Origin: an archaeon
GTDB lineage: Archaea; Iainarchaeota; Iainarchaeia; Iainarchaeales; GW2011-AR10
NCBI GenBank assembly: GCA_030651515.1
Contig: JAUSEO010000043.1
Location: 1-37,036, forward strand
DNA length: 37,036 nt
Reading direction: 5' to 3'
Part shown: in pieces, positions 4,948 to 30,940 of the stretch
How the letters are laid out: the number at the start of each line of letters is the position of its first letter
Numbering within the stretch: the first letter of the stretch is position 1
Program-made: the position numbers and the translations under genes
Notes under the pieces: model-generated
What the model was told of the DNA's origin: nothing
Databases searched by the model: none
The model's input: the letters and a program-made list of their open reading frames with translations, nothing else

Positions 4948-6018
4948 TTGGAAAAACCAGGCAGGGCAACAGCCGCGGAAAAAAAACCCAGCATATTCAT
5001 GGTCGGCCTGGGTGGAACGATAGCCGCCAAAGAAATCAACTCCAAATGGATATCCGGCCATTACTCGCAAAAAGAATTACTGAAAATGGACCCCAAGATA
5101 GAACACACTTTTGACGTCAAGACCTCAAACCTTTTCAGGATTCACTCGGCGGACACCCAGCCGGAACACTGGCTCTCGCTTGCAAACCTTGTCTACTACA
5201 ACCTGGATGAAGGCTTTGACGGTATAGTCGTCACGCACGGCACCGACACCATGCACTATACGAGCGCGGCGCTGAGTTTTCTGATACAGAATCTCAGCAC
5301 CCCAATCGTGTTCACGGGTTCACAGATAATCCCTGCAAAAATGGGTTCAGACGCGCCGAAAAACATTTACGACTCCCTAATGGTCGCGTCATACGCAGAC
5401 CTCGCCGAAGTCGTGATAGTCTTTAACGGCAAGATTTTCAGGGCAAACCGGGCCAAAAAGGTCGCAGCCGCTGACTTTGACGCATACAAGAGCTCAGGAA
5501 TCGAACCCCTTGGTTTTGTACAGCATGACATCGCGCTAAACGGCAAGCAAGTCAGGAGAAAAAAAAGAAAACCAAAATTATTCTCCAGGCTCGAGACAGA
5601 CGTTTCAATAGTTGAAGTCCACCCGGGCCTTAACCCAAAGAGCCTTGAAGCTGTCGCCAACTCCGGCCTGAAGGGGATAGTGCTTCGGGGATACGGCCTT
5701 GGAAACTACCCTGTCGAGAAAAAGTCCCTCACGCCTGCAATCAACAGCCTGGCCGAAAGGGGCATACCAGTAGTCCTCACGACACAATGCAGGATGGGGT
5801 CTGACTGGAAAAACGTTTTCTTCAAGGAAATAGGGACACGATATGACAACGCAAACGTCATTTTAGGCTACGACATGAGGCCCCACACAGCCCTCGTCAA
5901 GCTGATGTGGGTACTTGCACAGACAACCAAGCCAACACAGGTAAAAAAAATGATGCAAACAAGCTATGCAGGGGAAATAACCCCAAACATGGAAAAATAC
6001 AGGCAAAAAAAAAGATAA
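4948..6018 (+). CDS. L-asparaginase type I (AnsA-like; paralog of the GatD catalytic domain)
   Basis: GGTIA, HGTDTMHYT, TGSQ, G.GN and ALVKLMWVL motifs; lacks the GatD N-terminal domain. The exact start (TTG 4948) is uncertain. Confidence 0.8.
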   Translation: MEKPGRATAAEKKPSIFMVGLGGTIAAKEINSKWISGHYSQKELLKMDPKIEHTFDVKTSNLFRIHSADTQPEHWLSLANLVYYNLDEGFDGIVVTHGTDTMHYTSAALSFLIQNLSTPIVFTGSQIIPAKMGSDAPKNIYDSLMVASYADLAEVVIVFNGKIFRANRAKKVAAADFDAYKSSGIEPLGFVQHDIALNGKQVRRKKRKPKLFSRLETDVSIVEVHPGLNPKSLEAVANSGLKGIVLRGYGLGNYPVEKKSLTPAINSLAERGIPVVLTTQCRMGSDWKNVFFKEIGTRYDNANVILGYDMRPHTALVKLMWVLAQTTKPTQVKKMMQTSYAGEITPNMEKYRQKKR

Positions 6019-6039: not shown

Positions 6040-7362
6040 TTGGCAAAAGAAAAAAAAGACAACAGTGCAGGAAAAACACTGCACGTAGAGACAAAAGACC
6101 ATGAACTCGAAGGAACCGTGGTCAACACCCAAGGAAAGGAAATAACTCTCAAGCTTCCAAGTGGGTACAATGTCCTTGTAAACCAGGATGACATCCTGTC
6201 GAAAAAAATTCTCGGGCAAGCAAAAAACAACGGGAAAATAATTGCGAAAAAAATCCCCGAAAAAAACGGGCTCCCGAAAATATGCATCCTGCAGGTCGGA
6301 GGAACGATTGCAAGCAGGGTGGATTACAAGACCGGCGCAGTCAAGGTCGACTTTGAACCAAGCGAACTCCTCCACATGTTTCCCGAACTCGGGGAAATCG
6401 CGAATTTTGACGCAACAGCCATTGCAAGGGTATTCTCAGAGGACATGCGATTTGCCCACTACAAAAAAATCGCCCTTGCGATAAAAAAACAGGCAGAGTC
6501 AAAAAACCCGCCAAAAGGCATAATAGTGGCACACGGCACCGACACCATGCACTATACCAGCGCCGCCCTGGCATTCATGCTTGAAAACCCGCCCTTCCCA
6601 GTCATACTGGTCGGGGCACAGAGGTCAACAGACAGGGGAAGCTCGGACACTGCGACAAACCTCATCTCGGCAGCACACTTCATAGCCAAAACAGGTTACA
6701 AAGGCGTTGGCATCTGCATGCACGAAACCCCAGATGACACATCCTGCGTCATTCTCCCACCTGCAAAGACACGCAAAATGCATTCCTCGCGCCGCGACTC
6801 ATTCAGGGCAATAAACGCCACGCCAATTGCACGCGTGAACCCCCAGACAGGAGAAGTCACCATGATTTCAGCCCCGCAAAAAAACCAGGGAGAATTCGCG
6901 GTGAAACCAAAAATGGAGGAAAAAATCGGTTTGCTCAAGTCACACCCAAACCTCGACTGGCGCGAAATAGATTTCTACAGGAAAAACAAGTACAAGGGCC
7001 TTGTAATCGAGGGAACCGGCATGGGGCATATCCCGATAGGCGTTGAGGACAAGGAGACACAGCCAAACAAAAAAAACCTCGCCGCACTCAAAAAACTCAC
7101 AAAATCAGGATGCATAGTCGCCATGACCACCCAGTGCATTTTCGGCGAAGTAAGCAGCCACGTTTACAGCACCGGAGTGGAACTCCAGGAAGCCGGCATC
7201 GTTTCCGCAAAAGACATGCTCACTGAAACCGCGTTCATAAAACTCTCGTGGCTCCTTGGAAACTACAAGCCAAAAGAAGCACGCGAATTATTCACCCAAA
7301 ACCTGCGCGGAGAAATAAACGACCGCCACCAAATGAATTACTTTCCGCCAAAGGACCTATGA
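6040..7362 (+). CDS. gatD: Glu-tRNA(Gln) amidotransferase subunit D
   Basis: N-terminal LKLPSGYN domain, GGTIASRVDYKTGAV, HGTDT, GAQRSTDRGSSD, RKMHSSRRD. Confidence 0.95.
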   Translation: MAKEKKDNSAGKTLHVETKDHELEGTVVNTQGKEITLKLPSGYNVLVNQDDILSKKILGQAKNNGKIIAKKIPEKNGLPKICILQVGGTIASRVDYKTGAVKVDFEPSELLHMFPELGEIANFDATAIARVFSEDMRFAHYKKIALAIKKQAESKNPPKGIIVAHGTDTMHYTSAALAFMLENPPFPVILVGAQRSTDRGSSDTATNLISAAHFIAKTGYKGVGICMHETPDDTSCVILPPAKTRKMHSSRRDSFRAINATPIARVNPQTGEVTMISAPQKNQGEFAVKPKMEEKIGLLKSHPNLDWREIDFYRKNKYKGLVIEGTGMGHIPIGVEDKETQPNKKNLAALKKLTKSGCIVAMTTQCIFGEVSSHVYSTGVELQEAGIVSAKDMLTETAFIKLSWLLGNYKPKEARELFTQNLRGEINDRHQMNYFPPKDL

Positions 7363-7701: not shown

Positions 7702-7754
7702 GACAATTCCACAAAAGCTTAAATATTTTACGGCCATAAAATAGTTTGGTTTTT

Positions 7755-8858
7755 ATGAGTGAAATACGCGTTGCAATTGCAGGGGTCGGGAACTGTGCAA
7801 GCTCGCTGGTCCAGGGCGTGCAGTACTACAGGGACATAAAAGCAAGCGATGAGCTGGTTCCCGGGCTTATGCACAATTCTTTCGGCGGCTATCTGGCAAG
7901 TGACATAAAGTTTGTAGCGGCTTTTGACGTGGACAAACGAAAAATAGGCAAAGACCTCTCGCAGGCAATCTTTGAAAAACCAAACTGCACGCAGGTTTTC
8001 TGCAAAAACGTTCCAAGACAAGGCGTGGAAATAAAAAAGGGTCCCGTGCTTGACGGCATTGCAAGCCACATGCAGGACTACCCGGACGACAACACTTTTT
8101 TAGTTGACCAAAAGCAAAAACCGGTTGACGTCGCAGAAGAGCTACGCAAAGCAAAAGCGCAAGTCCTCATAAACTATGTGCCTGTCGGAAGCGAAGACGC
8201 GGCAAAACACTATGCACAGGCGGCACTTGACACGGGATGTGGTTTTGTAAACTGCATGCCAGTGTTCATTGGCTCCAACCCGGAATGGGCAAAAAAATTC
8301 GAGCAAAAACAAATCCCGATAGTAGGTGACGATGTTAAAAGTTTGCTCGGGGCAACAATCCTCCACCGCGTCGTTGCAAAACTTTTTTCAGACCGCGGGG
8401 TAAAAATCGAGGGCACTTACCAGTTAAACGTTGGCGGGAACACGGATTTTCTGAACATGAAGGAGCAATCAAGGCTCAAAAGCAAAAAAATCTCCAAAAC
8501 AGAATCAGTGCAGTCACAGCTCCCGGCTCCCCTGTCAAGTGAAAAAATCCACATCGGGCCAAGCGATTACGTGCCCTGGCTCAAAGACCAAAAAATCGCG
8601 TTTATAAGGCTTGAAGGAAAAGGATTTGGAGGCGTCCCAATGAACCTTGAAATGAGGCTAAGCGTCGAAGACTCGCCAAACTCTGCAGGCGTGGTGATTG
8701 ACGCAGTCAGGGCGGCAAAACTTGCACTGGACCGGCACATTGGCGGGCCACTCATTTCGGCTTCAGCTTACTTCATGAAACACCCACCCCAGCAATTCCC
8801 CGACCCCGTGGCACGTCAAATGGTTGAAGAATTCATACGCGGAGAAAGAACAAAATGA
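7755..8858 (+). CDS. ino1: myo-inositol-1-phosphate synthase
   Basis: GVGNCASSLVQG, NYVPVGS, GDDVKS..GAT, QLNVGGNTDFLN, EDSPNSAG, YFMKHPP. Confidence 0.95.
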   Translation: MSEIRVAIAGVGNCASSLVQGVQYYRDIKASDELVPGLMHNSFGGYLASDIKFVAAFDVDKRKIGKDLSQAIFEKPNCTQVFCKNVPRQGVEIKKGPVLDGIASHMQDYPDDNTFLVDQKQKPVDVAEELRKAKAQVLINYVPVGSEDAAKHYAQAALDTGCGFVNCMPVFIGSNPEWAKKFEQKQIPIVGDDVKSLLGATILHRVVAKLFSDRGVKIEGTYQLNVGGNTDFLNMKEQSRLKSKKISKTESVQSQLPAPLSSEKIHIGPSDYVPWLKDQKIAFIRLEGKGFGGVPMNLEMRLSVEDSPNSAGVVIDAVRAAKLALDRHIGGPLISASAYFMKHPPQQFPDPVARQMVEEFIRGERTK

Positions 8859-9308: not shown

Positions 9309-9914
9309 GTGCTGAACGAACACCGCGAAAAATTCAAAAGCATTTCAATCAAGGTTGGAGTGCTTTTCTCCAAAATACCTCTTTCGCCAAACCAGTGGAC
9401 ACTCTTCAGCATTGTGCCTGCAATCATCGCCTCGTGGCTCATTGCGCAAAACCAGTTCCTTTACGCAGCCATTTTTTTCGCAGCAGCCTCATTCCTGGAT
9501 TTTGTGGATGGAAGCGTTGCACGCGTCACGGGCCGCGTGACAAAATTCGGGGCCTACCTTGATACAGTCCTTGACAGGTACGTCGAGTTCCTCGCAATTG
9601 TTGGATTATTCTATGCAGGCCTTCCAACAGTTTTTTTGCCTGCAAAAGAATGGCTTTTGCTATACCTTTTCGGCTCAATGATGACGACTTACGCAAAGGC
9701 TGCGGCAAAAGAAAAAGAAATCACTCAGACAGAAATAAAGGGCGGTTTCTTTGAAAGGGCGGAACGCCTCATAATCCTGTTTATAGGCCTGTTGCTTGCC
9801 TTTGCACAGGGCACCGTGTTTTTGGCCATGGCAGTCATTTTGCTTGCAGCAATAACCAATCTAAGCGCCCTGCAAAGGATATTCATCGTCGCTAAGCTTG
9901 CCTCAAAAAGTTAA
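9309..9914 (+). CDS. CDP-alcohol phosphatidyltransferase, probably archaetidylinositol-phosphate synthase (PgsA-like)
   Basis: PN..T, signature DFVDGSVAR...GAYLDTVLDR and G.FERAER; co-oriented with ino1. Confidence 0.85.
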   Translation: MLNEHREKFKSISIKVGVLFSKIPLSPNQWTLFSIVPAIIASWLIAQNQFLYAAIFFAAASFLDFVDGSVARVTGRVTKFGAYLDTVLDRYVEFLAIVGLFYAGLPTVFLPAKEWLLLYLFGSMMTTYAKAAAKEKEITQTEIKGGFFERAERLIILFIGLLLAFAQGTVFLAMAVILLAAITNLSALQRIFIVAKLASKS

Positions 9915-9966
9915 AAAAGTCTTCACAGCAAACCTAATTAAAGCGAGGGGAAAAAAATTTGGTGAA

Positions 9967-11850
9967 ATGGTGGACTACAAAAAAATCGGTTTGAAGGCAG
10001 GCCTTGAAGTCCACCAGCAGCTTGACACGGGCAAACTGTTCTGCAGGTGCAAAACAATACTCCGCGATGACGCACCTGGCCTTGTGACCAAGCGGTTCAT
10101 GCGTGTCACCACTTCCGAGCTTGGGGAAATGGACCAGGCAGCACTTGAAGAATTCAAAAAAAAGCACGCTTTTTTCTACGAATCATTTTTCGACACCACT
10201 TGCGAGGTGGAACTTGACGAGGCCCCCCCAAAAAGCATTGACAAAAACGCGCTTGAAACAGTGCTCGAAATAGCCCTTCTCACAAACTCGCGCGTTTTTG
10301 AAAAAATACCTGTCATGAGAAAAATAGTCATAGACGGTTCAAACACTTCAGGCTTCCAGCGGACCGCGCTTGTCGCAGTGAACGGAAAAATAAAGGCAGG
10401 GGAAAAAACAGTCGGAGTGCAGACAATCGCAATAGAAGAGGACTCGGCGCGCCCATCAGAAAAAAAGGACGGCGCAGTGACTTACAGGCTTGACAGGCTT
10501 GGCACGCCCCTCATAGAGCTTGCAACCGCACCAGAGCTTTTCACGCCCCTGGAAGTGAAAAACGCTGCACTTGAAATAGGAAAAATTTTCAGGTTAACCG
10601 GAAAAACCAAGCGCGGCCTTGGGACAATCAGGCAGGACATAAACGTTTCCATCACAGGCGGGCAGAGAATTGAAATCAAGGGCGTGCAGGACCTGCAGAA
10701 CATCGACAAATACGTTGAACATGAAGCAAACAGGCAGGCCATACTCCTTGAAATAAAAGCGGAGCTTGAAAAACGCGGGTGCACAACACAGAAAATACTT
10801 GAAAACAAAATGGCTCCACTTGGAATGCTTGAAAACCCGAAGGACTTCCTCAAAGGAAAAAAAATCAGCGGAATACGCCTGCCGTTTTTTGCAGGCTTGG
10901 TTGGAAAAGAAATCCAGCCACTGCGCAGGCTTGGAACGGAGTTTGCAGACCATGTTCGGAAAAAAACAGCCGCAAAAGGGATAATGCACTCAGACGAAAA
11001 CCTTGAACAGGCCTATGGAATCACAGAGAAAGAAAAACAGGCCTTTGCACATTCACTTGGCGTGGCTGAAAAAGATGCGTTTGTTCTCGTGGCAGAAAAC
11101 GATGCACAAAAAGCAAAGGAAATACTTGAAGAAGCCGTTCTTTTTCGCGCTGCACAATGCCTGGAAGGGGTGCCAAAAGAAACCAGGGAAGCACTTGACG
11201 ACGGAAACAGTTCCTACCTGCGCCCCATTCCAGGTGCTGCCAGGATGTACCCGGAAACAGACCTCGAGCCAATAAACGTGAAAAAAGAGACCATTGAAAA
11301 AATAAAAAAGAACCTGCCGCTTTCAGAAGAGGACAGGGAAAAACTTTACACTGCGTGGGGCTTGAGCAGAAAACTCGTTGAACAAATGAAGCTGAACAAC
11401 TACGCGCCTTTCTTTGAAGAGCTCGTGAAAAATGGCTTCAATGCGACAAAAACAGCCGTGTTTTTGCTTGAAACACTCGTGGAAGCAAAAAGACTTGGAG
11501 CAAAAACAGACAGCCTCTCACGGGAACAGTTAAGGCAGTTCATGGAAAAAACCAGGACAGGGGAAATAAAACCCGAAGTGGAAACCGAGTTGCTCAAAGA
11601 GTTCTCAGAAAACCCGCAAAAAAGCATTGGAGAAACAATTTCAGGAAAAAAAATAGAGCACGCAAGTGACGCAGAAGTCCTTGAAACCGTGAAGAGGGTC
11701 TTTGAAAAAAACCGCCAGCTTGTGGAGGCAAAAGGGCAGGCAGCCTTTTCCGCCCTCATGGGAGACGCAATGCAGGAATTAAAGGGGCATGCAAGTGGAA
11801 AACAGGTAAGCGACGCACTCAAAAAAATCCTTGAGGAAAACAAAAAATGA
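9967..11850 (+). CDS. gatE: Glu-tRNA(Gln) amidotransferase subunit E
   Basis: GLEVHQQL, MRKIVIDGSNTSGFQRT, RGLGTIRQD, PGAARMYPETD. ATG 9967 follows SD-like GGTGA. Confidence 0.95.
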   Translation: MVDYKKIGLKAGLEVHQQLDTGKLFCRCKTILRDDAPGLVTKRFMRVTTSELGEMDQAALEEFKKKHAFFYESFFDTTCEVELDEAPPKSIDKNALETVLEIALLTNSRVFEKIPVMRKIVIDGSNTSGFQRTALVAVNGKIKAGEKTVGVQTIAIEEDSARPSEKKDGAVTYRLDRLGTPLIELATAPELFTPLEVKNAALEIGKIFRLTGKTKRGLGTIRQDINVSITGGQRIEIKGVQDLQNIDKYVEHEANRQAILLEIKAELEKRGCTTQKILENKMAPLGMLENPKDFLKGKKISGIRLPFFAGLVGKEIQPLRRLGTEFADHVRKKTAAKGIMHSDENLEQAYGITEKEKQAFAHSLGVAEKDAFVLVAENDAQKAKEILEEAVLFRAAQCLEGVPKETREALDDGNSSYLRPIPGAARMYPETDLEPINVKKETIEKIKKNLPLSEEDREKLYTAWGLSRKLVEQMKLNNYAPFFEELVKNGFNATKTAVFLLETLVEAKRLGAKTDSLSREQLRQFMEKTRTGEIKPEVETELLKEFSENPQKSIGETISGKKIEHASDAEVLETVKRVFEKNRQLVEAKGQAAFSALMGDAMQELKGHASGKQVSDALKKILEENKK

Positions 11851-15802: not shown

Positions 15803-15921
15803 TAGCCCCGCAGAGATTCGAACTCTGGTCTCAGGGTTTCTTCCAAAGGTCCTGCCTTGGCGAACCAAAACGCAAGCGTTTGGCCAAAGCCCTGCATCCT
15901 TGGCCACTAGACTACGGGGCT
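15803..15921 (-). tRNA. tRNA-Gln(UUG) with a 46-nt intron at 37/38 (intron 15838-15883)
   Basis: Acceptor AGCCCCG/CGGGGCT (A1-U72), anticodon stem CAGGG/CCCTG, loop CT-TTG-G|A, T-arm CAGAG-TTCGAAT-CTCTG; bulge-helix-bulge motif; no encoded CCA. Confidence 0.93.
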
Positions 15922-16083
15922 GATTAGCATATTTTCTGTGAAAGTTTTCTTAAAAAGGTTGCCATCATCTTGCCATGGAACCAATGAAAAACTACACCAG
16001 CATTATAGCCTCCTCGAGTAGGTGAAACCTACAAACACCCAGGAACAACAATCTTAAATTAAAAGGCAAAGCCAGGATAAAAA

Positions 16084-16242
16084 CTAGAAAAGGGCGTAAA
16101 CAAACGGTGACAGGACAGACGACTGGCCAAAAACAATGAGGACTGCAACCAGCACCAGCATTAGTATTATTGGAGCAAGCCACCACGCCCTTTTTTTCCA
16201 CAGGAACCGAAACATGTCTTTTGCAATTGTCAAAAAATCCAT
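16084..16242 (-). CDS. 52-aa SxtK-like / DUF5989 small membrane protein (not in the ORF track)
   Basis: Hand translation MDFLTIAKDMFRFLWKKRAWWLAPIILMLVLVAVLIVFGQSSVLSPFVYALF fits the family pattern FL..RKKWWL.P...S..APFIY.LF; neighbours a carbamoyltransferase. Confidence 0.85.
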   Translation of the reverse strand: MDFLTIAKDMFRFLWKKRAWWLAPIILMLVLVAVLIVFGQSSVLSPFVYALF

Positions 16243-16371
16243 GAAAAAAACCTTGCCTGATAGTAATGTATTTTTCCAAAAACCTTAAAAACTTAGGAGA
16301 AACCAAAAAATTGGTTAAATACCTTTAAAAACAGTTTAAAACCCAATCTTTAAAATAATGGGTGACTTGTT

Positions 16372-16761
16372 TTGGATGCAGCAAAATCGCTTGGCTTTTT
16401 ATCAGGCCTCTCACTTCTTTTTTTAGTGCTTGGCTCGCTTTGGGCACATGCAGCCCCAATAACTCTTCCATTTATTGCAGGGCTTTTTTTATCCAACCTT
16501 TTGCTTGGGGTCTTGCTCCCAAAAGTTTTTCCAAAAAACCCGTTTTTTTCAGGGTTCCATAACGGGATTCAAGAGTTTGGAAAAAAAGCAAACTTTGCCG
16601 TAGTCAGTGCAGCATTAGTTGCTGTTTACTTGCTTGGGGTTGGAGTGACGTGGGGTTTTTCAAAAATAACAGGGAAAAACTTTCTTAGAATGAAGGCAAC
16701 TGGAAAAAGCAGCTGGGTTGATGTTTCCCAAAAAAAACGGAATTTTGAGGAAATGTTTTGA
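16372..16761 (+). CDS. SxtJ-like membrane protein
   Basis: Hydrophobic N-terminus; C-terminal Y.L.V......ITGKNFL.......SSW.......FEEMF resembles the SxtJ tail; lies directly upstream of the carbamoyltransferase. Confidence 0.6.
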   Translation: MDAAKSLGFLSGLSLLFLVLGSLWAHAAPITLPFIAGLFLSNLLLGVLLPKVFPKNPFFSGFHNGIQEFGKKANFAVVSAALVAVYLLGVGVTWGFSKITGKNFLRMKATGKSSWVDVSQKKRNFEEMF

Positions 16762-16779
16762 CAAAAAAAAGGTGTTTGA

Positions 16780-18522
16780 TTGGACGTTCTTGGAATCTCA
16801 GCCTATTACCATGACTCTTCTGCATGCCTCTTAAGGGACGGAAAAATAATCGCCGCTGCACAGGAAGAAAGATTTTCAAGAAAAAAACACGACCTGGGCT
16901 TCCCGGTCAACGCCATGAATTATTGTCTTGAAGAAGCCAAAACAGCAGCAAAAGAACTTGACGCAGTTGCTTTTTACGAAAAACCTTACCTTAAGTTTGA
17001 ACGGCTTTTAATGCAGTTCATTGACACTTTCCCGCGTTCAATGGGAGTGTTCGTGGAATCGATTCCAAGCTGGCTTTCAGAAAAACTCCTCGTTCCAAAA
17101 AACATCAAGGATTTGGGATACAACGGAAAAGTCTATTACCTGGAGCACCACTTGAGCCACGCTGCCTCAGCATTCCTGTGCTCACCCTACAAAAAAGCCG
17201 CTATACTCACAGTTGACGGAGTGGGAGAGTATGCCACAACGACTTTTTCATCAGGCAATGACCGGGAAATAAAATTATTCAAGGAAATCCATTTCCCCCA
17301 CTCGCTTGGCCTGCTTTACAGCACGATTACTGCATACCTTGGCTTTACTGTCAACAATTCAGAGTACAAAGTCATGGGGCTTGCCCCCTGTGGAAAACCG
17401 GTTTACATGGATGAATTTGACAAACTCATCAAAAATTTTGATGACGGGAGCTTTGAACTTGACATGAGTCACTTTGCTTACACGCACGAAAAAAAAATGC
17501 CCTCAAAAAAACTAGAACAGCTTTTCGGGGAAAAAACGCGGGAAAAAGAAAGCCAGATAACACAGTTCCACAAGGATGTAGCCGCGTCACTGCAGGCAAA
17601 AACAGAAGAAGTACTTTTCCACCTTTTGGAAAACCTCTACAAAGAAACAAAGCTTGAAAACCTCTGCATGGCAGGCGGAGTGGCATTAAACAGCGTGGCA
17701 AACGGAAAAATTCTTTCAAAGACACCATTCAAAAGGATATTCATCCAGCCTGCTGCAGGAGACGCGGGAACTTCAATGGGGGCGGCATTATTTGTTTACA
17801 ATTCTTTGATGAAAAAACGCAGAGAATTTGTTTTAACTTCTGCTTTCCTTGGCCCGTCTTTTTCAGACCAAAAAGTCAAAGAATACCTTGACAAAAACGC
17901 CATAAAATATTCCAGGTTCCGCTCGCAGGCAGAAATAGCGAAAAAAACCGCAGAGCTTGTGCACAACAATTCAGTCATCGGGTGGTTTGAAGGCAGAATG
18001 GAGTGGGGGCCACGCGCGCTTGGGGCAAGAAGCATTCTTTCAAACCCCACAAACCCAAAAATGCAGGACATCCTGAACCTCAAAGTAAAACACCGCGAAA
18101 AATTCAGGCCATTTGCACCGGTTGTCTTGTTTGAAGAAGCACACAAGTGGTTTGAATGCGATGACCCGATTCCTGAAGCCGCGGACTACATGCTCATGGT
18201 TTACCCGGTCAGAAAAGAAAAAAGAAAAATCATTCCCGCCGTGACACACGTGGACGGAAGCGGAAGGCTACAGGTAATCAGAAAAGAACAGCACGCACTT
18301 TACTACCAGGCAGTAAAAGAATTCCAAAAGCTGTCCGGAGTGCCGATAATGATAAACACTTCTTTTAACATACGCGGAGAACCAATAGTCTGCACTCCGC
18401 ACGACGCTTACAGGTGCATGATGGGCACAGGCATTGATTGCCTTGTAATTGAAAACTACCTGGTAAAAAGAAGCGACAACCAAAAAGACATGTGGGACAG
18501 CGAAAAAAACGCAACAGATTAG
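16780..18522 (+). CDS. O-carbamoyltransferase (NodU/CmcH/TobZ/SxtI family)
   Basis: GISAYYHDS, QEERFSRKKHD, EHHLSHAAS, DGVGE, EYKVMGLAP, AGGVALN, GPRALGARS, RE.FRPFAP, HVDGSGR.Q, NTSFN. Confidence 0.93.
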   Translation: MDVLGISAYYHDSSACLLRDGKIIAAAQEERFSRKKHDLGFPVNAMNYCLEEAKTAAKELDAVAFYEKPYLKFERLLMQFIDTFPRSMGVFVESIPSWLSEKLLVPKNIKDLGYNGKVYYLEHHLSHAASAFLCSPYKKAAILTVDGVGEYATTTFSSGNDREIKLFKEIHFPHSLGLLYSTITAYLGFTVNNSEYKVMGLAPCGKPVYMDEFDKLIKNFDDGSFELDMSHFAYTHEKKMPSKKLEQLFGEKTREKESQITQFHKDVAASLQAKTEEVLFHLLENLYKETKLENLCMAGGVALNSVANGKILSKTPFKRIFIQPAAGDAGTSMGAALFVYNSLMKKRREFVLTSAFLGPSFSDQKVKEYLDKNAIKYSRFRSQAEIAKKTAELVHNNSVIGWFEGRMEWGPRALGARSILSNPTNPKMQDILNLKVKHREKFRPFAPVVLFEEAHKWFECDDPIPEAADYMLMVYPVRKEKRKIIPAVTHVDGSGRLQVIRKEQHALYYQAVKEFQKLSGVPIMINTSFNIRGEPIVCTPHDAYRCMMGTGIDCLVIENYLVKRSDNQKDMWDSEKNATD

Positions 18523-18533
18523 AAAAAAAATAA

Positions 18534-18968
18534 TCAGGTTTTTGGAATTTTTTTCCCGTGCGGGCAGGTTTTGGGATAGCCCAAGACGCGCGCAAGGGAT
18601 TTTGCAACCTCGTCAGTCATAACGTGCTCAAAGCGGCAGGGGTCCGTCGAGTTATAGTCAATTTTTAGCACGTCCCGAAACCAGACTTCTGCCAAGCGCA
18701 GGTTTCGCACAATTTTTACAGCTATTTCACGGCCGGTAGGCATGAGAGAAACACCGCTCCTGCCATCATACTTAAGAAGGCTTTTTTTCTCAAGCTTTCG
18801 GAACATGCCCACAACAGACGGCAAAGAAACAGAAAGCATGCGTGCAACGGCAGCAGCGTGAATCGGGTTTTTACCATCTTCCTCCACAAGCCACACGGCC
18901 TTTAGGTACATCTCCTCGTTTTCAGAGCTTTTCTCCAAAAGAACACTGCACTTTTCTTGTTTAGCCAT
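18534..18968 (-). CDS. DtxR/MntR/IdeR-family metal-dependent repressor (no FeoA/SH3 domain)
   Basis: SENEEMYLK, A..LSVS.PSV, RLAE, CRFEH, YPKTCPHG..IP. Start placed at ATG 18968. Confidence 0.88.
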   Translation of the reverse strand: MAKQEKCSVLLEKSSENEEMYLKAVWLVEEDGKNPIHAAAVARMLSVSLPSVVGMFRKLEKKSLLKYDGRSGVSLMPTGREIAVKIVRNLRLAEVWFRDVLKIDYNSTDPCRFEHVMTDEVAKSLARVLGYPKTCPHGKKIPKT

Positions 18969-19066
18969 AGGCAATAAAATAAACCACATAAAGAAAGTAT
19001 ATAAGCAATTCTACGCGTGAAGCCTGGTTCACGCATGGGTTTTTAAATATTCTGCACCAAACCAAC

Positions 19067-19102: not shown

Positions 19103-20044
19103 ATGTTTTGGGGGAAAAAAGTGAACAAGCATTTTGAAACCAGGACACGCCTTTTGCACTTGACTGCTCTTTTACTTTTAACACTTATTTTCATTCCAGG
19201 ATTGGCGTTTGCAAAAGAGGAAACAACCGAAACTGATTCTTCTGCTTTCTTGCAGTCCCTGACGATAATCCTTCGCGAAGGCGTCGAAGCAATACTTATA
19301 ATCGGCGCGATTGTTGCAACTCTTTTTGTTTCAAACAACACTGACAAAATCAAAACGATTTACATCGGCGCGGCCTTGGCGATAATCGCTTCCCTTGCAA
19401 CAGCTTTTTTCATCGACCAAATTTTTGTCTGGGGGGATTCGCAAAAAGGATTCCTCGAAGGCATGACTTTGCTCACCGCAGCAGCAGTCTTATTGTTTGT
19501 AACCAACTGGCTGTTGTCAAAAGCAGAGGCCACAAAGTGGAAAAGCTACATCAAGGGAAAAGTCGAAAAAGCCGTTTCACAGGAAAGCCCCATCGCATTG
19601 GCAGCAGTCGCGTTCCTTGCAGTTTACAGGGAAGGATTCGAAACCGTACTCTTTTACAAAGCACTTTTCCTCCAGACAGGAAACACCCCGGAAATATTGA
19701 CGGGCATTTTACTTGGCTCAGCCATACTATTAGGCGTGTTTTTTGTCGCAATAAGAATTGGGATGAGGCTGCCGGTCAAAACTTTTTTCCTCTCCACAAG
19801 CGTGCTGTTGTTCTTTTTTGCATTCACTTTTGTGGGAAGCGGCATACATGAACTCCAGGAAGCCGGAACGCTTCCAGAAACCAGTTTTGCATTTATCCCA
19901 AAAGTAAAAGATTTAGGGCTCTACCCAACGATTGAAACCATTCTTGGCCAACTCATTGTCATCGGGTTTGGGGCATTCATGGCTTACATCCACGTTTTCC
20001 GGCACCGCGACTTTGACAAGCAGTTAGCCAGGCAAGCAGTTTAA
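19103..20044 (+). CDS. FTR1/EfeU-family high-affinity iron permease
   Basis: Two REGxE motifs (REGVE, REGFE), GIHELQEAG, LGLYPT.ET; multiple TM segments. Confidence 0.92.
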   Translation: MFWGKKVNKHFETRTRLLHLTALLLLTLIFIPGLAFAKEETTETDSSAFLQSLTIILREGVEAILIIGAIVATLFVSNNTDKIKTIYIGAALAIIASLATAFFIDQIFVWGDSQKGFLEGMTLLTAAAVLLFVTNWLLSKAEATKWKSYIKGKVEKAVSQESPIALAAVAFLAVYREGFETVLFYKALFLQTGNTPEILTGILLGSAILLGVFFVAIRIGMRLPVKTFFLSTSVLLFFFAFTFVGSGIHELQEAGTLPETSFAFIPKVKDLGLYPTIETILGQLIVIGFGAFMAYIHVFRHRDFDKQLARQAV

Positions 20045-20055
20045 GAAAAAATAAA

Positions 20056-20146
20056 TGGGCCCGCTCAGATTTGAACTGAGGACCTTTCGATTGCCGTTTT
20101 CCACATTATCAGTCGAATGCTCAAAACCAGGCTAAGCTACGGGCCC
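20056..20146 (-). tRNA. tRNA-Ile(GAU) with a 15-nt intron in the anticodon loop (about 20092-20106)
   Basis: Acceptor GGGCCCG/CGGGCCC, anticodon stem TTCGA/TCGAA, loop CT-GAT-A|A interrupted by ATGTGGAAAACGGCA, T-arm CTCAG-TTCAAAT-CTGAG. Confidence 0.9.
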
Positions 20147-23923: not shown

Positions 23924-24226
23924 CTATTTTTTCAGGATAGCGAAAAACAAGAAACCCAGTATTATCAGTTCAAAAACATTCTCACTTGAGTCCGCAAGAA
24001 ACGTGCCGGGAGAGAAAAACAAGTCAACCAGCTTGACAAGCCATTTGAGGGCAAAAAACAAAAAGGCCAAAGAAACAAAAAGGAGCTTTTGGGACGGGTT
24101 TTTACGGTAAGCCATGAAGGCCACGGCAAAAAAAGCCGCTGAAAGCAAAAAAACGAGTATTTTGACTAAAGGGTCTAACTGTACCCCAACATCACTTAAA
24201 GGTCTTAAAAAATCCCATAGAGCCAA
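23924..24226 (-). CDS. Small 3-TM membrane protein, hypothetical
   Basis: Three hydrophobic stretches; TTG 24226 preceded by SD-like AGGTG; 13 bp from the downstream regulator. Confidence 0.65.
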   Translation of the reverse strand: MALWDFLRPLSDVGVQLDPLVKILVFLLSAAFFAVAFMAYRKNPSQKLLFVSLAFLFFALKWLVKLVDLFFSPGTFLADSSENVFELIILGFLFFAILKK

Positions 24227-24559
24227 AAAAAACACCTTTTTGTTGAAATAAGTGATATACCAATAAAAAGAAAAAAAGGGCAGGAAAGGAAAAAAAAGCC
24301 CTTTTTTTGTGAGGTGAATCAAAGGAGGTTTTTCGCTTTCGCCTTTTCTTAAAAAAAACTTCTATTTACTAGAATAATTATCACCGGCTTTTTATAAAGT
24401 GATTTTGGTACAATAACGATAAACTGCATGGGTGTTGTGCAGGAAAAGGCTATTTTAACCTGTTTAAAAGCATTTTTTGAGAGGCCCTTCCCTGACAAAC
24501 GGCCATTTGAACAAGTTATCACTGAAACAGTAAACTAGTAGTGTTTCAGCATCAACCAA

Positions 24560-24605
24560 AAGTTATCACGGAGAAAGCTTTAAATATATTTTCCAGTGAT
24601 AACTT
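24560..24605. promoter_or_regulatory. Inverted repeat bracketing the fic TATA box
   Basis: AAGTTATCAC (24560-24569) and GTGATAACTT (24596-24605) flank CTTTAAATATA and end 3 bp before the ATG; a further AAGTTATCAC copy lies at 24513-24522. Confidence 0.6.
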
Positions 24606-24608
24606 AGT

Positions 24609-25580
24609 ATGGCTCACATTGTTTCAAGAAAGGTTAAGGGGAAAAAATATTACTATCTAGAGGAGTCTTTCAAAGACATGGAAAAATGGGTCAAAGAAAG
24701 CGCTTATCTTGGCCCAGAGAAACCTTCCAAACAGCAATTGCTATCCGCTTTTGAAAAACTCAAAGGGAAATGCAAAGCTCGAAAACACCTGGTTCTTGTT
24801 CAGCCGTTAACAGAATTCATTTCAAACAAAAAAGCATCAGAATTGCAGAAAGCAATAGACAGCAAAAAAGAGTTCCTGGAAAAACTTACGAAAAAACAAA
24901 AAGACGAGTTCGCCAGAAGGGAAAGAATAACATTCATCACGGATTCCAATGCAATCGAAGGAAGCTCCCTAACTTACAGCGAAACCTCAAATATAATAGG
25001 CCAGGAAAAAGAAATCAAAAAGGCAGGAAAAAAACATTTAATAATAATCGGAATCAACCGCGAACAGCAAGAAGCATTAAACCTCAAAGCATGCCTTGAC
25101 CGATACGACAAATACCTGAAAATAAACCAGAAAATAACAGAAAAAACTATACTGCAACTGCATTATATCCTATTAGCAAACATTTCAGGTTATGAAAAGT
25201 ACCAGGGAATCTACAGGCCGGTAAAAGTCTACATTGTCGGCTCAACACATGAATTCCCACTGCCTCAAGAAGTATCAGGGCTGATGAAACAATTAATCCA
25301 ATGGCTCTGGGAAAACGAAGAGCTTATACACCCCGTTGAACTGGCGGCAAAATTCCATACAAAATTCACGACAATACACCCATTTGCGGATGGCAACGGC
25401 AGAATGGCAAGACTTTTGATGAATTACATTCTTCAGCAAAAAGGGTTCCCGTTCACAAACATCCCGCTAAAAAGAAGAGAAACCTACATGAAAACACAGG
25501 CAGCCGGAAACAAAGAAAACCATAAACCATTCACAAAATTCCTGGAAGAAGAAATCATAAAACAACACTTCGACAAATGA
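24609..25580 (+). CDS. Fic-domain protein (putative AMP transferase, class II)
   Basis: Canonical HPFADGNGRMAR; upstream inhibitory-type motif SNAIEG; basic N-terminal GKKYYYL..S segment. Confidence 0.92.
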   Translation: MAHIVSRKVKGKKYYYLEESFKDMEKWVKESAYLGPEKPSKQQLLSAFEKLKGKCKARKHLVLVQPLTEFISNKKASELQKAIDSKKEFLEKLTKKQKDEFARRERITFITDSNAIEGSSLTYSETSNIIGQEKEIKKAGKKHLIIIGINREQQEALNLKACLDRYDKYLKINQKITEKTILQLHYILLANISGYEKYQGIYRPVKVYIVGSTHEFPLPQEVSGLMKQLIQWLWENEELIHPVELAAKFHTKFTTIHPFADGNGRMARLLMNYILQQKGFPFTNIPLKRRETYMKTQAAGNKENHKPFTKFLEEEIIKQHFDK

Positions 25581-25586
25581 GAAACT

Positions 25587-26105
25587 GTGAAAAACATGGA
25601 AAAAAAACTCGCCGCAATCCTGCTTTTGGGGCTCTATTTTTCCGCCTGTGCAACACAGGAAGTAACGGTTGCCCCGGAAGTTTTTTTCTGCCCGGAAGAC
25701 AACTGTGCAGACCATTTGATTGAAAAAATCGATTCGGCAACGAGCACCATTGACATAGCGGTTTATTCTTTCACGCACGACGAAATCGCAGACGCCCTCA
25801 TAAGGGCTGGCGAAAGAGGCGTGAAAGTAAGAGTGCTTGTGGATTTCACACAGTCACAAAACAAGTATTCCGAAGACGAAAGGCTTGGAAAAAATGGCAC
25901 CGAAGTCAAAACCGTGAGAAAAAGCGGCGGAATCATGCACAACAAGTTCATAGTGATTGACGGCGCGCTTGTAGGCACGGGTTCGTTCAACTACTCGCGC
26001 AACGCGGACGAGTCAAACGACGAGAACCTCGTATTCCTTTCAGACGCAAAAACGGCAAAAAAATATTTGGAAGAATTCGGAGAAATATGGGCTGAAACAG
26101 GGTGA
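25587..26105 (+). CDS. Single-HKD phospholipase D-family nuclease (Nuc-like), probably a lipoprotein
   Basis: HNKFIVID...GSFN...NDEN; IDIAVYSFT; N-terminal hydrophobic stretch ending FSAC. Start may be ATG 25596. Confidence 0.85.
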   Translation: MKNMEKKLAAILLLGLYFSACATQEVTVAPEVFFCPEDNCADHLIEKIDSATSTIDIAVYSFTHDEIADALIRAGERGVKVRVLVDFTQSQNKYSEDERLGKNGTEVKTVRKSGGIMHNKFIVIDGALVGTGSFNYSRNADESNDENLVFLSDAKTAKKYLEEFGEIWAETG

Positions 26106-26139
26106 ATTTAGAAAGATTGATGCAGCTGTAAGTGTCCTT

Positions 26140-26325
26140 TTGAAGAGTGACACTTTTTTAAATTGTTTCTCATTGTCCGAATGCATGGATTATTTCAAGC
26201 TCACAAAAGGAACAATAATAACATTCAGCGAAGAAACCGAAACAGAAAAAAACGGCAAGAAGATAAACATCATCCCCGCATGGAAATGGCTCCTGGAAAA
26301 CAATGACCCAAAAGAAAAAAAGTGA
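26140..26325 (+). pseudogene. C-terminal remnant of a COG1373/DUF4143-type AAA+ ATPase
   Basis: ECMDYFKLTKGTIIT...KKINIIPAWKWLL resembles the terminal segment of that family; no P-loop region upstream. Confidence 0.65.
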
Positions 26326-26426
26326 AAAAAACGAATTTTAAAAAATTGCTTCATTTTGTCTGCCAATATCCATTGTTTGCCGGGCTTCAAATGGCAAAAC
26401 TGGCACTTTTGGCAGGTGGCATGTTT

Positions 26427-26706
26427 TATGTTCCACTTAGTGGTTAAAGTGGCACATATTTTGTTCCACTTTAGAAAGGTTGTGATTGCCAACAAGCAGG
26501 ATAATATAGCAAAAAGCATATGTATTTGAACATTTGAATTGCTTTTTGCATATAACAAACCGCAATAAAAAGTTCAAAAATATAAGCGGTTTGCTATATG
26601 TTTTACAACACATGTTTTGTTGCCCACTATAATAGGTGTGGCAAGTGTTACTACCAGCGTATCACTTTTAATAGAAAGTGATATTAATTTTGTATCACTT
26701 TAGAAA
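26427..26706. repeat. AT-rich non-coding block with several inverted repeats and a duplicated CACTT-N8-AAGTG...CACTTTAGAAAG module
   Basis: IRs at 26427-26458, 26549-26600, 26620-26644 and 26660-26683; CACTTTAGAAAG occurs twice. Confidence 0.65.
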
Positions 26707-27092
26707 GACTTATATTTTGTGTGGAAAGGATTTCTCTTGAAGAAAACTTTGGAATTTCGAAACTCATTTTCGAATCACCCCCGATAGCGAGAAAATGAAT
26801 TTTTTTTCATGGAAACGCCTCCGCGTTGCTTGGAGGCATTAAACGCCTTAGCCGAAGACGACCCCTTTAGGGGGAAGGCTTTAAGCCGAGAAGCAATCGA
26901 GTTGGAATGAAAAAAAATTCGCGAAGCGAAGGAGGTGCGGAAAAGGGGTTTAAGCACCGCAAGACTGAGACGTAGGAAAAAAAGATGGAGTTGGAGTGAT
27001 AAGGATTTTTGGAAAGTTTCGCACCGGCAGTGAACCCTCTGGATATTTATAAACCAGAGGCAGCCAATGCTAATTGTGCAGGGGGTGCACAG

Positions 27093-27695
27093 ATGAAAAT
27101 AGCATTTTTTGATTTGGAAACAAAATACCTATTTGAGGATTTGGACGGGGGATATTCCACTATGAGCTCTTTGGATAAGAAAAAAAGAGTTGATGTCTTG
27201 ATTCCACAAATCGGTCTGGCGACGGCATGTATAATTACAGATAGCTCAAAACCAGAAACATTCGTGTTTGACGAAGGCAAAGAAAAAGAACTCATAGAAG
27301 CGCTTAACGGATATGAGCGCATTGTGGGGCACAATGTGTTAAACTTTGACTACCGCGTGCTATCAGGCCAATTCAATGGAGACATAGTCGCCCACTACAC
27401 CCCAAAAACACTGGATACTTTTGAAGAACTCAAAAAAGCAACCATTGGCCAATGGATTGGGCTAGACGACCTTGCACAGCAAAATTTAGGGAAAAATAAA
27501 ACAGAAGACTCAAAAAAAATCCCTTCAATGTGGAGAGCGGGCAAAAAACCAGAAGTAAGAGCCTATTGTAAAAACGACGTCCAACTCCTAAAAGATGTTT
27601 ACTATTATGGAAAAGAACACGGAAAACTAAAATATACAAAAAAGGACTACGGCAGAGTAATTGGAATAGAAGAAGTGAAAACACCATGGCTTTAA
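27093..27695 (+). CDS. Stand-alone RNase H-like DEDDy 3'-5' exonuclease (YprB / RNase_H_2-like)
   Basis: FDLET, GHNVLNFD, LD, YCKNDV. Start placed at ATG 27093. Confidence 0.82.
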   Translation: MKIAFFDLETKYLFEDLDGGYSTMSSLDKKKRVDVLIPQIGLATACIITDSSKPETFVFDEGKEKELIEALNGYERIVGHNVLNFDYRVLSGQFNGDIVAHYTPKTLDTFEELKKATIGQWIGLDDLAQQNLGKNKTEDSKKIPSMWRAGKKPEVRAYCKNDVQLLKDVYYYGKEHGKLKYTKKDYGRVIGIEEVKTPWL

Positions 27696-27840
27696 GAGAA
27701 GTTAAATCCAAGGCGTTCTAAGATTAAAGAAAAATTGATGTTAAAAACCCGGAAAACTTTCATGGAAAGGTATAATTCAGGGGGAAAAATTTTCTTTGAT
27801 TCGGGTTTCTTTTTGGCAAAATATATTACACGGGCAGTTT

Positions 27841-28197
27841 TCATTTTTTTCCCGGTTCCGTGTAAAAACCGAGTTTTATGACTGTTCCTGCTGCAACAGT
27901 CCCATTGGCAAGCGTTCCTGTTTCGGGGCGGCCAACGCGGGCCATGATGTGCATGGAGCCGAACAACTCGTCAAAACTTAGCTTGAAGCCCCCGCTTGCG
28001 TGGATGACTTTTGAATCCTTTAGGCTAAGGGTTTTGAAGTTCTGGCCAACCATTGTAGTCATTTTACCCACCTTGATTGTGCCATCCAGGTAGTCAACCG
28101 TGCATTCCTTGATGGAATGGTTCTTCATTGCAAGCTTTATGGACTCAAGCACGCCGTCATTTTCGTCAAGCTCCAAAACCAACTGTTTTTTCACCAT
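27841..28197 (-). CDS. PPC / DUF296 domain protein
   Basis: LVLEL...DGVLESI, G.I..., MHI...G.L..G.V pattern; about 118 aa from ATG 28197. Confidence 0.65.
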   Translation of the reverse strand: MVKKQLVLELDENDGVLESIKLAMKNHSIKECTVDYLDGTIKVGKMTTMVGQNFKTLSLKDSKVIHASGGFKLSFDELFGSMHIMARVGRPETGTLANGTVAAGTVIKLGFYTEPGKK

Positions 28198-28318
28198 CTT
28201 GTTCTTATAAAAATCCGAAAAAACCCCTGCCAAGCAAATCATCCCCAAAAGCTTTTGAAAAAAAAAACCTTATCAGAAAATAGGATGGTAAAAAATATAA
28301 AACAGGGTCTTTAACGCG

Positions 28319-28669
28319 TTACCCCGCGTTTTGGGCAATTTTGGCATAGGCCTTGGTTTTTCCAAAAACCCTTTTTTTTGCCGCCTTGAAAACCCTTGCA
28401 AGCCAAGCAGCAAAACCTATCAACAGCACGAGTGCCACGAAAAACAATGAGGCAAAAACGGCAAAAAGTGTTGAAACAAAAGGGACTTTTGACACAAGGC
28501 TTGACTTTTTTTCTGCCCAGCTCCTTGAAACCGCGAACAGGAAAAGGAACACGAAAAACGAGTAAAAAAACTTTTTCTTTACACGAACCGACACGGAATC
28601 ATTATTCTTTCCAATAGGCTTTTCTTCGACTGACACCACATTCACCTCTGAATTTTTTGATTTTATCAA
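28319..28669 (-). CDS. Hypothetical membrane protein
   Basis: Two hydrophobic segments and a basic C-terminus; start uncertain. Confidence 0.5.
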   Translation of the reverse strand: MIKSKNSEVNVVSVEEKPIGKNNDSVSVRVKKKFFYSFFVFLFLFAVSRSWAEKKSSLVSKVPFVSTLFAVFASLFFVALVLLIGFAAWLARVFKAAKKRVFGKTKAYAKIAQNAG

Positions 28670-28751
28670 AAAAATTTTGAAAAAATTATTTTTTTTGGGG
28701 GATGAATAAGTAGAGCAATAGTTTCTTTTAAAAAAGTATCCCCGTTTTTTT

Positions 28752-30167: not shown

Positions 30168-30940
30168 GGCTTCACCAGGTGCTTCAACAGTTTTTCGTGA
30201 ATCAGGCCGTTTGACGCCACGAATGCTTCGCTGAATGGCGTGGCTTTTTTGCCGGAAAAATCTGTCACGGTCCCGCCTGCTTCCCCGACTACGAGGATTC
30301 CTGCCGCGGCGTCCCAGGGAAAAAGCTTGTGCTCAAAATAACCGTCAAGGCTTCCTGCAGCAACCAGGCACAGGTCCAGAACCGCGGAACCACACTGCCT
30401 GATTCCCTGTGTTTCCCCAATCAGGTTTGAAATGCCCTGGATTGTTTTTGCCGCAAGTTCCCCGCGCTCGTATGGAAAGCCTGTTGCAAGCACGCACTCG
30501 ATGAGCTCCGTGTTTTTCGAGACACTGATTTTTTTTTCGTTCCAAAAAGCGCCCCTGCCTTTTACGGCGTGGAAAAAATCCCCTGTAATTGGATTAAAAG
30601 CGGCTCCAAGAACCGGTTCGCCGTCCACGAGCAGGGCAATCGAGGAGCAGAACCACGGCACGCCATGTGCAAAGTTAATGGTGCCGTCAATGGGGTCAAC
30701 TATCCACACCCGGTCATCGCTGTCCCCGCTTTTTCCGCTCTCTTCCTCCAAAAAAGAGTCGCGCGGAAAACTCTTTGAAATGATTTCGTGGATTTTTCTC
30801 TCGCTTTCAAGGTCTGCCTGTGTAACAATGTCAATCCTGCCTTTTTTTTTCACGAAAAATTTTTTGCGGAAATACTTTAGCATTATTTTTCCCGCCTCGC
30901 GTGAAGCCTTTGACGCAACCTTTAATTCTTGTTCAAGCAT
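30164..30940 (-). CDS. suhB: Inositol monophosphatase (SuhB family)
   Basis: DIVT.AD, EE, WIVDPIDGT.NF.HG, GSA.LDL, PWD.AAG...EAGG. ATG 30940 overlaps the gatA stop and its own stop overlaps the gatB start. Confidence 0.92.
   Translation of the reverse strand: MLEQELKVASKASREAGKIMLKYFRKKFFVKKKGRIDIVTQADLESERKIHEIISKSFPRDSFLEEESGKSGDSDDRVWIVDPIDGTINFAHGVPWFCSSIALLVDGEPVLGAAFNPITGDFFHAVKGRGAFWNEKKISVSKNTELIECVLATGFPYERGELAAKTIQGISNLIGETQGIRQCGSAVLDLCLVAAGSLDGYFEHKLFPWDAAAGILVVGEAGGTVTDFSGKKATPFSEAFVASNGLIHEKLLKHLVKP

Follow-up and report, generated by a model that had tools for sequence, protein, structure and literature searches.

The 37,036-nucleotide stretch of archaeal DNA analysed in this study (contig JAUSEO010000043.1, referred to throughout as the window) carries a module of three genes, here designated K, J, and I, which may take part in carbamoylation of the cell envelope. 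The K gene, encoding a DUF5989/SxtK-like membrane microprotein of 52 amino acids (aa) that matches PF19451, lies on the minus strand at 16084-16242. J (16372-16761, plus strand, TTG start) encodes a membrane protein of 129 aa classed as a divergent SxtJ homologue by a profile-profile match, and I (16780-18522, plus strand, TTG start) encodes a soluble NodU/CmcH/TobZ-type O-carbamoyltransferase of 580 aa composed of Carbam_trans_N and Carbam_trans_C domains. All three reading frames were present in the list of open reading frames (ORFs). J and I are separated by 18 nt, with a ribosome-binding-like GGTG preceding the TTG start of I, and K is transcribed away from both across an AT-rich spacer of 129 bp (16243-16371), read from the sequence and presumed to be a two-way promoter region. 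The GC content over 16001-17000 was 0.397. Of the sequencing runs listed, none of RNA contained the stretch; one DNA run did and may be its source.

The host is a small groundwater DPANN archaeon, represented by a genome of 770 kb in 84 contigs (73% complete). It was regarded as archaeal because the closest database records were Candidatus Iainarchaeum/Diapherotrites metagenome-assembled genomes (MAGs) and because archaeal markers were found, namely GatD/GatE and presumably intron-bearing tRNA genes in the window, together with TBP and AglB in the genome. A first-pass annotation of this DNA, made from the sequence before any database search, had reported a complete archaeal triad, and its three ORFs were indeed found in place in an Iainarchaeum-like host. 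As it had also stated, no core sxt genes other than I, J, and K were detected in the window by Pfam searches of the 27 window ORFs, which are otherwise housekeeping, transport, or unknown ones.

In Pfam, both transferase domains were matched over their full length by I, with 278 bits for Carbam_trans_N and 239 bits for Carbam_trans_C, in agreement with its earlier description as a full NodU/TobZ-type O-carbamoyltransferase, and I scored below the NodU equivalog NF041651 (158.3 bits vs a cut-off of 1000). Its solved relatives were 7xb6, NovN, GdmN, and TobZ (E 3.5e-100 to 1e-81), and conserved blocks such as GPRALGxRSIL, KHRExFRPFAP, and NTSFN aligned with 7xb6. TobZ-type enzymes use carbamoyl phosphate and ATP to produce an activated carbamoyl group. 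The first-pass annotation had called for a check of the genome for a carbamoyl-phosphate source, and a carbamate kinase (358.6 bits) was identified as a possible one; an OTC/ATC-type (ornithine/aspartate transcarbamylase) enzyme is encoded as well, and the large subunit of carbamoyl phosphate synthetase gave no match in the 73% complete genome.

K matched PF19451 (DUF5989) with an E value of 1.9e-18 and 66.7 bits, well above the cut-off of 27, over profile positions 2-49 of 49, so that its designation as DUF5989/SxtK-like passed the profile check. It was the sole DUF5989 match in the 770-kb genome, and all of the aligned K relatives (30/30) matched the same profile. The protein consists of a basic N-terminus, a single transmembrane (TM) helix, and a C-terminal hexapeptide FVYALF, which conforms to F-x-Y-x-x-F. 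Among 72 distinct K tails, Tyr stood at the third of the last six residues in all 72 and the complete F-x-Y-x-x-F was present in 66, FIYTLF being the commonest form. Across 30 sequences of archaeal and distant bacterial origin, invariance was limited to P24, F47, and Y49, and F52 was at least 90% conserved. Furthermore, the mean net charge before the helix was +3.1, and that after the helix was 0 in 70/70 sequences. On account of this charge bias, K is predicted to be oriented N-in/C-out with its tail extracytoplasmic, a topology resembling that of DltX. Fused forms of K were not found among the longer proteins searched, which is weak evidence, and a search of PDB sequences with the K profile brought up no DltX chain, its matches being weak TM-helix ones to DsbB at E values of 0.035 or above.

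The C-terminal hexapeptide of K corresponds to a motif described in another class of envelope-modifying systems. In the available portions of the source, DltX is a membrane microprotein with an invariant Tyr near its extracellular C-terminus, within an "acyl shuttle" motif FXYXXF, and this Tyr ferries D-alanine from the membrane-bound O-acyltransferase (MBOAT) protein DltB to the SGNH protein DltD (PMC12148441). The same source describes the motif at the C-terminus of PatA (peptide FIYANF), from which an acetyl group is handed to the SGNH protein PatB (PMC12148441).

J, by contrast with K, showed no match in Pfam or NCBIfam; the SxtJ profile PF19588 (cut-off 24.4 bits) was silent even at E ≤ 10, and it matched 0/17 Iainarchaeota J relatives and 0/135 sampled members of the wider family. 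The protein is conserved, with 5 relatives at 63-82% identity, and a profile of 17 J sequences retrieved 1589 cluster representatives at E ≤ 0.001, many of them about 80 aa in length and shortened to the final helix plus tail. In most bacterial transferase loci, within a set of 63 loci from other genomes, the J position was occupied by a protein of about 140 aa. When ten J-position proteins were tested against Pfam, eight matched PF19588 (E 2e-9 to 1e-3), comprising seven of the bacterial type (136-144 aa) and one 127-aa protein encoded downstream of I, and two short archaeal J forms (80 and 81 aa) showed no match. Alignment of 26 bacterial with 17 archaeal J proteins by hhalign gave a probability of 98.5% and an E value of 1.7e-15 over 122 columns, and the tail GKxxL...SYW...F was common to both groups, the window J having GKxFL...SSW...EEMF. 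Because of this profile-profile match to PF19588-positive bacterial proteins, J is, on sequence comparison, a divergent SxtJ homologue that lies beyond the reach of the Pfam model. Its earlier label as SxtJ-like thus held as remote homology, although it failed the test with the PF19588 profile at E ≤ 10, an outcome that the first-pass annotation had named as a refutation. A match of J to SxtJ in the ESM Atlas (score 0.87) was treated as a lead only.

The AlphaFold2 model of J (predicted local distance difference test, pLDDT, 91) consisted of helices at 2-25, 28-52, and 57-100 followed by a less confident basic tail, and the near-invariant positions of the family were G65, L82, Y86, G91, K102, W115, and F129. 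Two tandem short paralogues (69-70 and 80-81 aa) took the place of J ahead of the transferase in two other loci, L097 (3541-3992, labelled Methanosarcinales) and L098 (3464-3915, Woesearchaeota).

To describe the distribution of the module, neighbours were counted in fetched flanks of 4-5 kb, in which unlinked partners are undercounted, and the close transferase subtype was defined as phmmer E ≤ 1e-150 to the I of the window; the taxon labels of MAG contigs are possibly wrong. Among 215 genomes of the phylum, DUF5989 was found above cut-off in 19 and the transferase C-domain in 31. The transferase was present in 18 of the 19 DUF5989 genomes, and DUF5989 was absent from 13 transferase genomes. 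In Iainarchaeota loci with the close subtype, J was present in 15/16, in each case directly upstream of I, and K in 14/16, whereas 18 Iainarchaeota loci with distant transferase paralogues contained neither. The presence or absence of J and K therefore follows the transferase subtype, and the expectation that archaeal homologues of the transferase carry J and K proved correct for the close subtype.

The same linkage was seen in other genomes, where J and K were each found in 50/56 loci of the close subtype. A pattern search for K matched at least 598 stretches, 472 of which were confirmed as relatives; the best 80 were kept, and 79 K-centred loci were analysed, with J in 72/79 and I in 70/79 within 5 kb. 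These best 80 stretches span Planctomycetota, Bacteroidota, Acidobacteriota, Cyanobacteriota, Omnitrophota, candidate-phyla bacteria, and more, and the archaea among them include Woesearchaeota and Nanoarchaeota. Cultivable, non-pathogenic bacteria also carry the module, examples being strains of Methylocystis, Methylocapsa, Dyadobacter, and Melioribacter. The module is thus ordinary in its distribution, occurring in many bacterial phyla and in DPANN archaea. Such co-occurrence shows a functional link only, and the obligate complex that had been proposed for the three proteins does not follow from it.

The order of the genes was variable (J-K-I, I-J-K, J-I-K, K-J-I, I-K-J, and others), some loci having the gene of a fourth family, described below, inserted. 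J-K-I prevailed in the Proteobacteria-rich set and I-J-K in cyanobacteria and others; the co-orientation of sxtI, sxtJ, and sxtK in cyanobacteria, stated in the first-pass annotation, was reproduced in four fetched cyanobacterial loci (L190, L197, L199, and L241), all I-J-K. The divergent k/J-I arrangement was found in 6 Iainarchaeota loci and also in the same-genus genome G088. The flipped orientation of K that had been singled out is therefore real but not special, since the order is permuted and a divergent K occurs in several Iainarchaeota genera. It is linkage of the module that matters, no particular order having been shown to matter.

In a quick FastTree of 142 transferases with midpoint rooting, the I of the window grouped with those of G089, G194, G185, and G192 (support 99). 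This group was nested in a nearly all-archaeal clade of 23 rows (support 99), comprising 12 Iainarchaeota, 5 labelled Methanosarcinales, 4 Woesearchaeota, 1 Nanoarchaeia, and 1 labelled Gammaproteobacteria, and the branch tied to J and K held 125 of the 142 rows (support 99). Given that the divergent K is common to Iainarchaeota genera whose transferases fall in one clade, the arrangement is old and lineage-wide. A rearrangement specific to the window was rejected on the ground that a divergent K is found in relatives from other genera, and a recent bacterial transfer into this genome was rejected in view of the position of I in the 23-row clade of the midpoint-rooted FastTree. As separate observations, one Gammaproteobacteria-labelled and five Methanosarcinales-labelled contigs (L177, L165, L169, L170, L176, and L097) nest in the DPANN clade and may be mis-binned DPANN sequences or cases of gene transfer, and the transferase of L058 (G015:C2, 3484-5256) is split into ORFs of 84 and 484 aa, by a frameshift or an assembly error.

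Clustering of the larger ORFs of the fetched loci revealed a fourth family, a membrane-anchored GDSL/SGNH family with 25 members in 24 loci. Its members match the Lipase_GDSL, Lipase_GDSL_2, and AlgX-type SGNH profiles, and GDS and D-x-H were invariant across 70 sequences. With a hidden Markov model (HMM) of the family, members were detected in the fetched flanks of 13/16 Iainarchaeota loci, 33/56 transferase-centred loci, and 39/79 K-centred loci, and an SGNH gene lay within 250 bp of K for 11/20 Iainarchaeota K genes. Where K is located apart from J-I (G194 and G065), the SGNH gene adjoins K, and two loci are arranged s-k / J-I, that is, as two divergent sub-operons. With the SGNH protein of the present genome (G000) as query at E ≤ 1e-10, the family was found in 11 of the 215 phylum genomes, all 11 with the transferase and 10 with DUF5989. 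In G088 (L003/L096), K is followed by a TPR and GDSL protein of at least 499 aa.

In the present genome the SGNH gene is unlinked to the module and lies on another contig (G000:C64:2702-4093; family HMM E 1.4e-63), where it is divergent from AglB/STT3, with a GT4 N-acetylglucosamine-1-phosphate (GlcNAc-1-P) transferase gene then adjoining. N-glycosylation in archaea centres on AglB/STT3 and GlcNAc-1-P transferase. In other loci, the module is repeatedly surrounded by epimerase/dehydratase, GT4, and GT2 genes. The model of the G000 SGNH protein (pLDDT 88) showed, besides the SGNH domain, a helix at the N-terminus, a pair of long helices, and a beta-rich region. The closest solved fold was that of CgnD (8a2n; Z 23.8, root-mean-square deviation 3.8 over 250 residues), ahead of generic SGNH proteins and esterases at Z scores of about 17; DltD, PatB, and AlgX were not among the fold matches listed, which does not exclude a transferase role. 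A single prediction of the complex of K with the G000 SGNH protein, run without controls, scored 0.01 against a mark of 0.32, which speaks neither for nor against their binding.

Some further arrangements involving this family were observed. In L059 (G012:C31, 4706-7198), the SGNH-K pair is tandemly duplicated after J-I, giving J-I-S-K-S-K. In G072 and G073 (L073 651-1565 and L076 4581-5435), a class I S-adenosylmethionine-dependent methyltransferase lies between the transferase and K, at the place that the SGNH gene takes elsewhere. In Trichodesmium erythraeum IMS101 (L222, 4572-10014), three consecutive genes of the SGNH family come after J-K, with no transferase within the 5-kb flanks. In the present archaeon, a YkuD L,D-transpeptidase-domain protein is encoded a few kb from the AglB/SGNH pair (L160, G000:C64, 6317-6949).

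Our interpretation was built on what was observed, namely which four families are present, that they co-occur, and the motif and charge bias of K; from these observations we infer each step of transfer, how J is oriented in the membrane, the passage of the carbamoyl group across it, and the acceptor. At a likelihood that we place slightly short of an even chance, the module operates as a carbamoyl-tyrosine relay by which an extracytoplasmic glycan of the envelope is O-carbamoylated, the locus in the window providing the donor half and the shuttle of a four-part machinery. In this proposed relay, cytoplasmic I would activate the carbamoyl group from carbamoyl phosphate and ATP, the former supplied by carbamate kinase, and J would use its basic tail to tether I to the membrane and would assist in handing over the carbamoyl group. 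The outside Tyr of K would then carry the group as an aryl carbamate, in the manner of DltX, and pass it to the catalytic serine of the membrane-anchored SGNH/GDSL transferase, which would load the polymer. Since the SGNH gene adjoins AglB/STT3 and the GlcNAc-1-P transferase gene, the likeliest acceptor in this genome would be an N-linked or dolichol-linked surface-layer glycan. The wider and more specific claim, that DUF5989/SxtK is a carbamoyl-tyrosine shuttle which, with SxtJ, a TobZ-type transferase, and an SGNH transferase, forms a relay free of MBOAT and AT3 proteins and here carbamoylates N-linked surface glycans, is put forward tentatively and is on balance doubtful.

Several points weigh against the relay. 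J lacks an obvious catalytic residue such as an invariant histidine, and its topology is ambiguous, as its loop (+2.4) and tail (+4.2) are both basic. The relay gives no account of how a cytoplasmic carbamoyl-adenylate would reach an outside Tyr, and both N-unsubstituted aryl carbamates and carbamoyl-serine enzymes may lack stability or turn over slowly. MBOAT (PF03062) had no match in the 73% complete genome. The DltX profile PF12459 matched 0/30 K sequences at E ≤ 10 and nothing in the genome at E ≤ 1; K resembles DltX in motif, size, and predicted topology, a likeness that may have arisen by convergence, and what we would claim is a likeness of mechanism rather than membership of one family. 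In addition, an SGNH gene is missing from the window and, within 5 kb, from 40 of the 79 K-centred loci, and the adjacency of SGNH and AglB genes was seen once, no close orthologue being present in the 215 phylum genomes (best identity 28-38%).

Some of these same points would be accommodated if the role of J and K were membrane recruitment only, a reading we judge unlikely, if still the most serious of the rivals. J and K would anchor I, which would directly carbamoylate a lipid-linked sugar or lipid at the inner face before flipping, while the Tyr tail of K would serve in structure or docking and the SGNH protein would be a separate esterase trimming carbamoyl or acetyl groups. TobZ-type enzymes are generally known to carbamoylate hydroxyl acceptors directly with no carrier, J stands directly upstream of I in 15 of the 16 Iainarchaeota loci, neither the conserved residues of J nor the MBOAT search of the genome pointed to a conduit-like catalytic membrane protein, and the SGNH gene is often not near, as noted for the window and the K-centred loci. 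The tabulation of SxtL as a "decarbamoylation" enzyme, in the portions of the source available, points the same way (PMC2679770). However, recruitment leaves unexplained that the most conserved part of K is the predicted extracytoplasmic F-x-Y-x-x-F with its invariant Tyr, and that it is K, not J or I, that stays beside the SGNH gene in split modules.

The invariance of this Tyr would also be expected if K were an end acceptor, through stable carbamoylation of a Tyr of its own or of another protein, or if K and J chaperoned or gated the enzyme and nothing were relayed to a polymer. This is improbable: the surrounding genes for glycan biosynthesis and the association with SGNH proteins suggest an acceptor further downstream, and a stable modification of a 52-aa protein would bring no obvious benefit. 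Tailoring of a secreted secondary metabolite, as for saxitoxin, suomilide, and crocagin, is suggested by the naming of sxtI/J/K/L in such pathways and by CgnD, which among solved structures comes nearest to the SGNH partner and is the product of a crocagin cluster with a carbamoyltransferase (PMC10070186, in the portions available), but it is very improbable in a 0.77-Mb genome (73% complete) whose 27 scanned window ORFs include no further gene of sxt or biosynthetic type and with related loci neighboured by glycosyltransferases and sugar epimerases.

Around the module, a tRNA gene of 119 nt, presumably intron-bearing, lies at the module boundary on the minus strand (15803-15921; Rfam RF00005, 51.8 bits), directly after K, where the same-genus genome G088 has an SGNH gene; unlike Rfam, ARAGORN gave no call for it. 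A second long tRNA gene (20056-20146, minus strand, 91 nt), presumably with an intron as well, was detected by both Rfam and ARAGORN, the latter labelling it tRNA-Tyr with the odd anticodon "ata". Directly downstream of I, a DtxR/IdeR-type metal repressor gene (18534-18989, minus strand) is divergent from the gene of an FTR1-family iron permease (19103-20044, plus strand). The window also holds GatD, GatE, GatB, a GatA-type amidase, a bacterial-type aspartyl-tRNA synthetase containing a GAD domain, and one additional ORF of asparaginase type (6040-7362, 9898-11850, 28752-30167, 30933-32459, 32679-34454, and 4948-6018); as GatD/GatE occur together with GatB and GatA-type genes, both tRNA transamidation routes appear to be encoded in this very small genome. 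A low-GC stretch at 24001-29000 (GC 0.37-0.43 vs about 0.46-0.50 elsewhere in the window), which carries a Fic/DOC-domain protein (24609-25580) and ORFs without a Pfam match, may be an acquired island. Genes for myo-inositol-1-phosphate synthase and inositol monophosphatase (7746-8858 and 30164-30961) are present without any link to the module. With regard to the envelope substrate suggested earlier, a glycan target fits the gene context, whereas the inositol lipid named beside it goes back to these inositol genes, which nothing ties to the module.

Taken as a whole, the locus is an archaeal member of the SxtI/J/K type, and what would be new is the reading of the mechanism of J and K, the donor machinery, and the group moved. 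Its earlier description as an undescribed system can be kept for the mechanism but not for the gene set, which is widespread and made up of families already named. Its two most telling features, the F-x-Y-x-x-F tail of K and the SGNH partner, were absent from that first-pass description. If the relay is real, carbamoylation would join the envelope modifications made outside the membrane, the tyrosine-shuttle principle would work without an MBOAT or AT3 protein, and a first handle would be gained on the surface-glycan chemistry of DPANN archaea, which depend on host-cell contact. The wider claim, if true, would provide the first acyl-tyrosine relay moving carbamoyl and the first in Archaea, and the same logic would explain SxtJ, SxtK, and SxtL of toxin and natural-product clusters. 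If the relay is not real, the locus would be another member of a common, named, and uncharacterised gene set.

Among known systems, the cyanobacterial saxitoxin clusters and their homologues in non-toxic bacteria contain the same three families, SxtI, SxtJ (remotely related to J), and SxtK, and there too a GDSL/SGNH gene travels with them: sxtJ, sxtK, and the GDSL gene sxtL are listed side by side in saxitoxin and suomilide clusters in the available portions of the sources (PMC2679770, PMC10157211). The roles of SxtJ and SxtK have been given only as action "with SxtI", from a paper of 2009 (PMC2679770) to a review of 2025 (PMC12300590); the available text of both says that "SxtI with SxtJ and SxtK" carbamoylate and nothing further, the review writing of an "SxtI/SxtJ/SxtK complex". 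No mention of DUF5989 was found in the literature searched, supplementary files lying outside its coverage; no SxtJ mechanism was found in literature since 2018 as judged by title; and the matches examined for a link between DltX and a carbamoyltransferase were unrelated by title or abstract. The present module differs from the sxt clusters in its DPANN host, in the lack of any other sxt gene in the window, in a J beyond the Pfam SxtJ model, in a K divergent from J-I, and in an SGNH gene that is unlinked and located beside N-glycosylation genes; moreover, the K motif is here read outside the named saxitoxin producers.

In the case of crocagin, the cluster encodes the carbamoyltransferase CgnI alongside CgnD, the best structural match to the G000 SGNH partner; CgnD differs in being a soluble, slow leader-peptide protease with no membrane anchor, and J and K are not reported in the available portions of that work (PMC10070186). 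I shares the two-domain architecture of TobZ, NovN, GdmN, and NodU (E 1e-81 to 1e-100 to solved structures), but these enzymes act alone on soluble small molecules, whereas the branch to which I belongs is tied to J and K.

The DltX-DltB-DltD and PatA-PatB systems share with K the F-x-Y-x-x-F C-terminus and its invariant Tyr, as far as the available text of the source describes them (PMC12148441). DltX and K are further alike in size (about 50 aa), in a membrane-anchored SGNH partner, and in the context of glycan modification, and the tail of K is predicted to be extracytoplasmic like that of DltX. These systems differ in that their donor is an MBOAT protein, in place of which a soluble carbamoyl-adenylate-forming enzyme and a three-helix protein are found here, and in that they move D-alanyl or acetyl groups, whereas a carbamoyl group is proposed for the present module, which occurs in Archaea as well as in Bacteria. 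The linkage of the SGNH gene with K parallels both the sxtK-sxtL and the DltX-DltD pairings.

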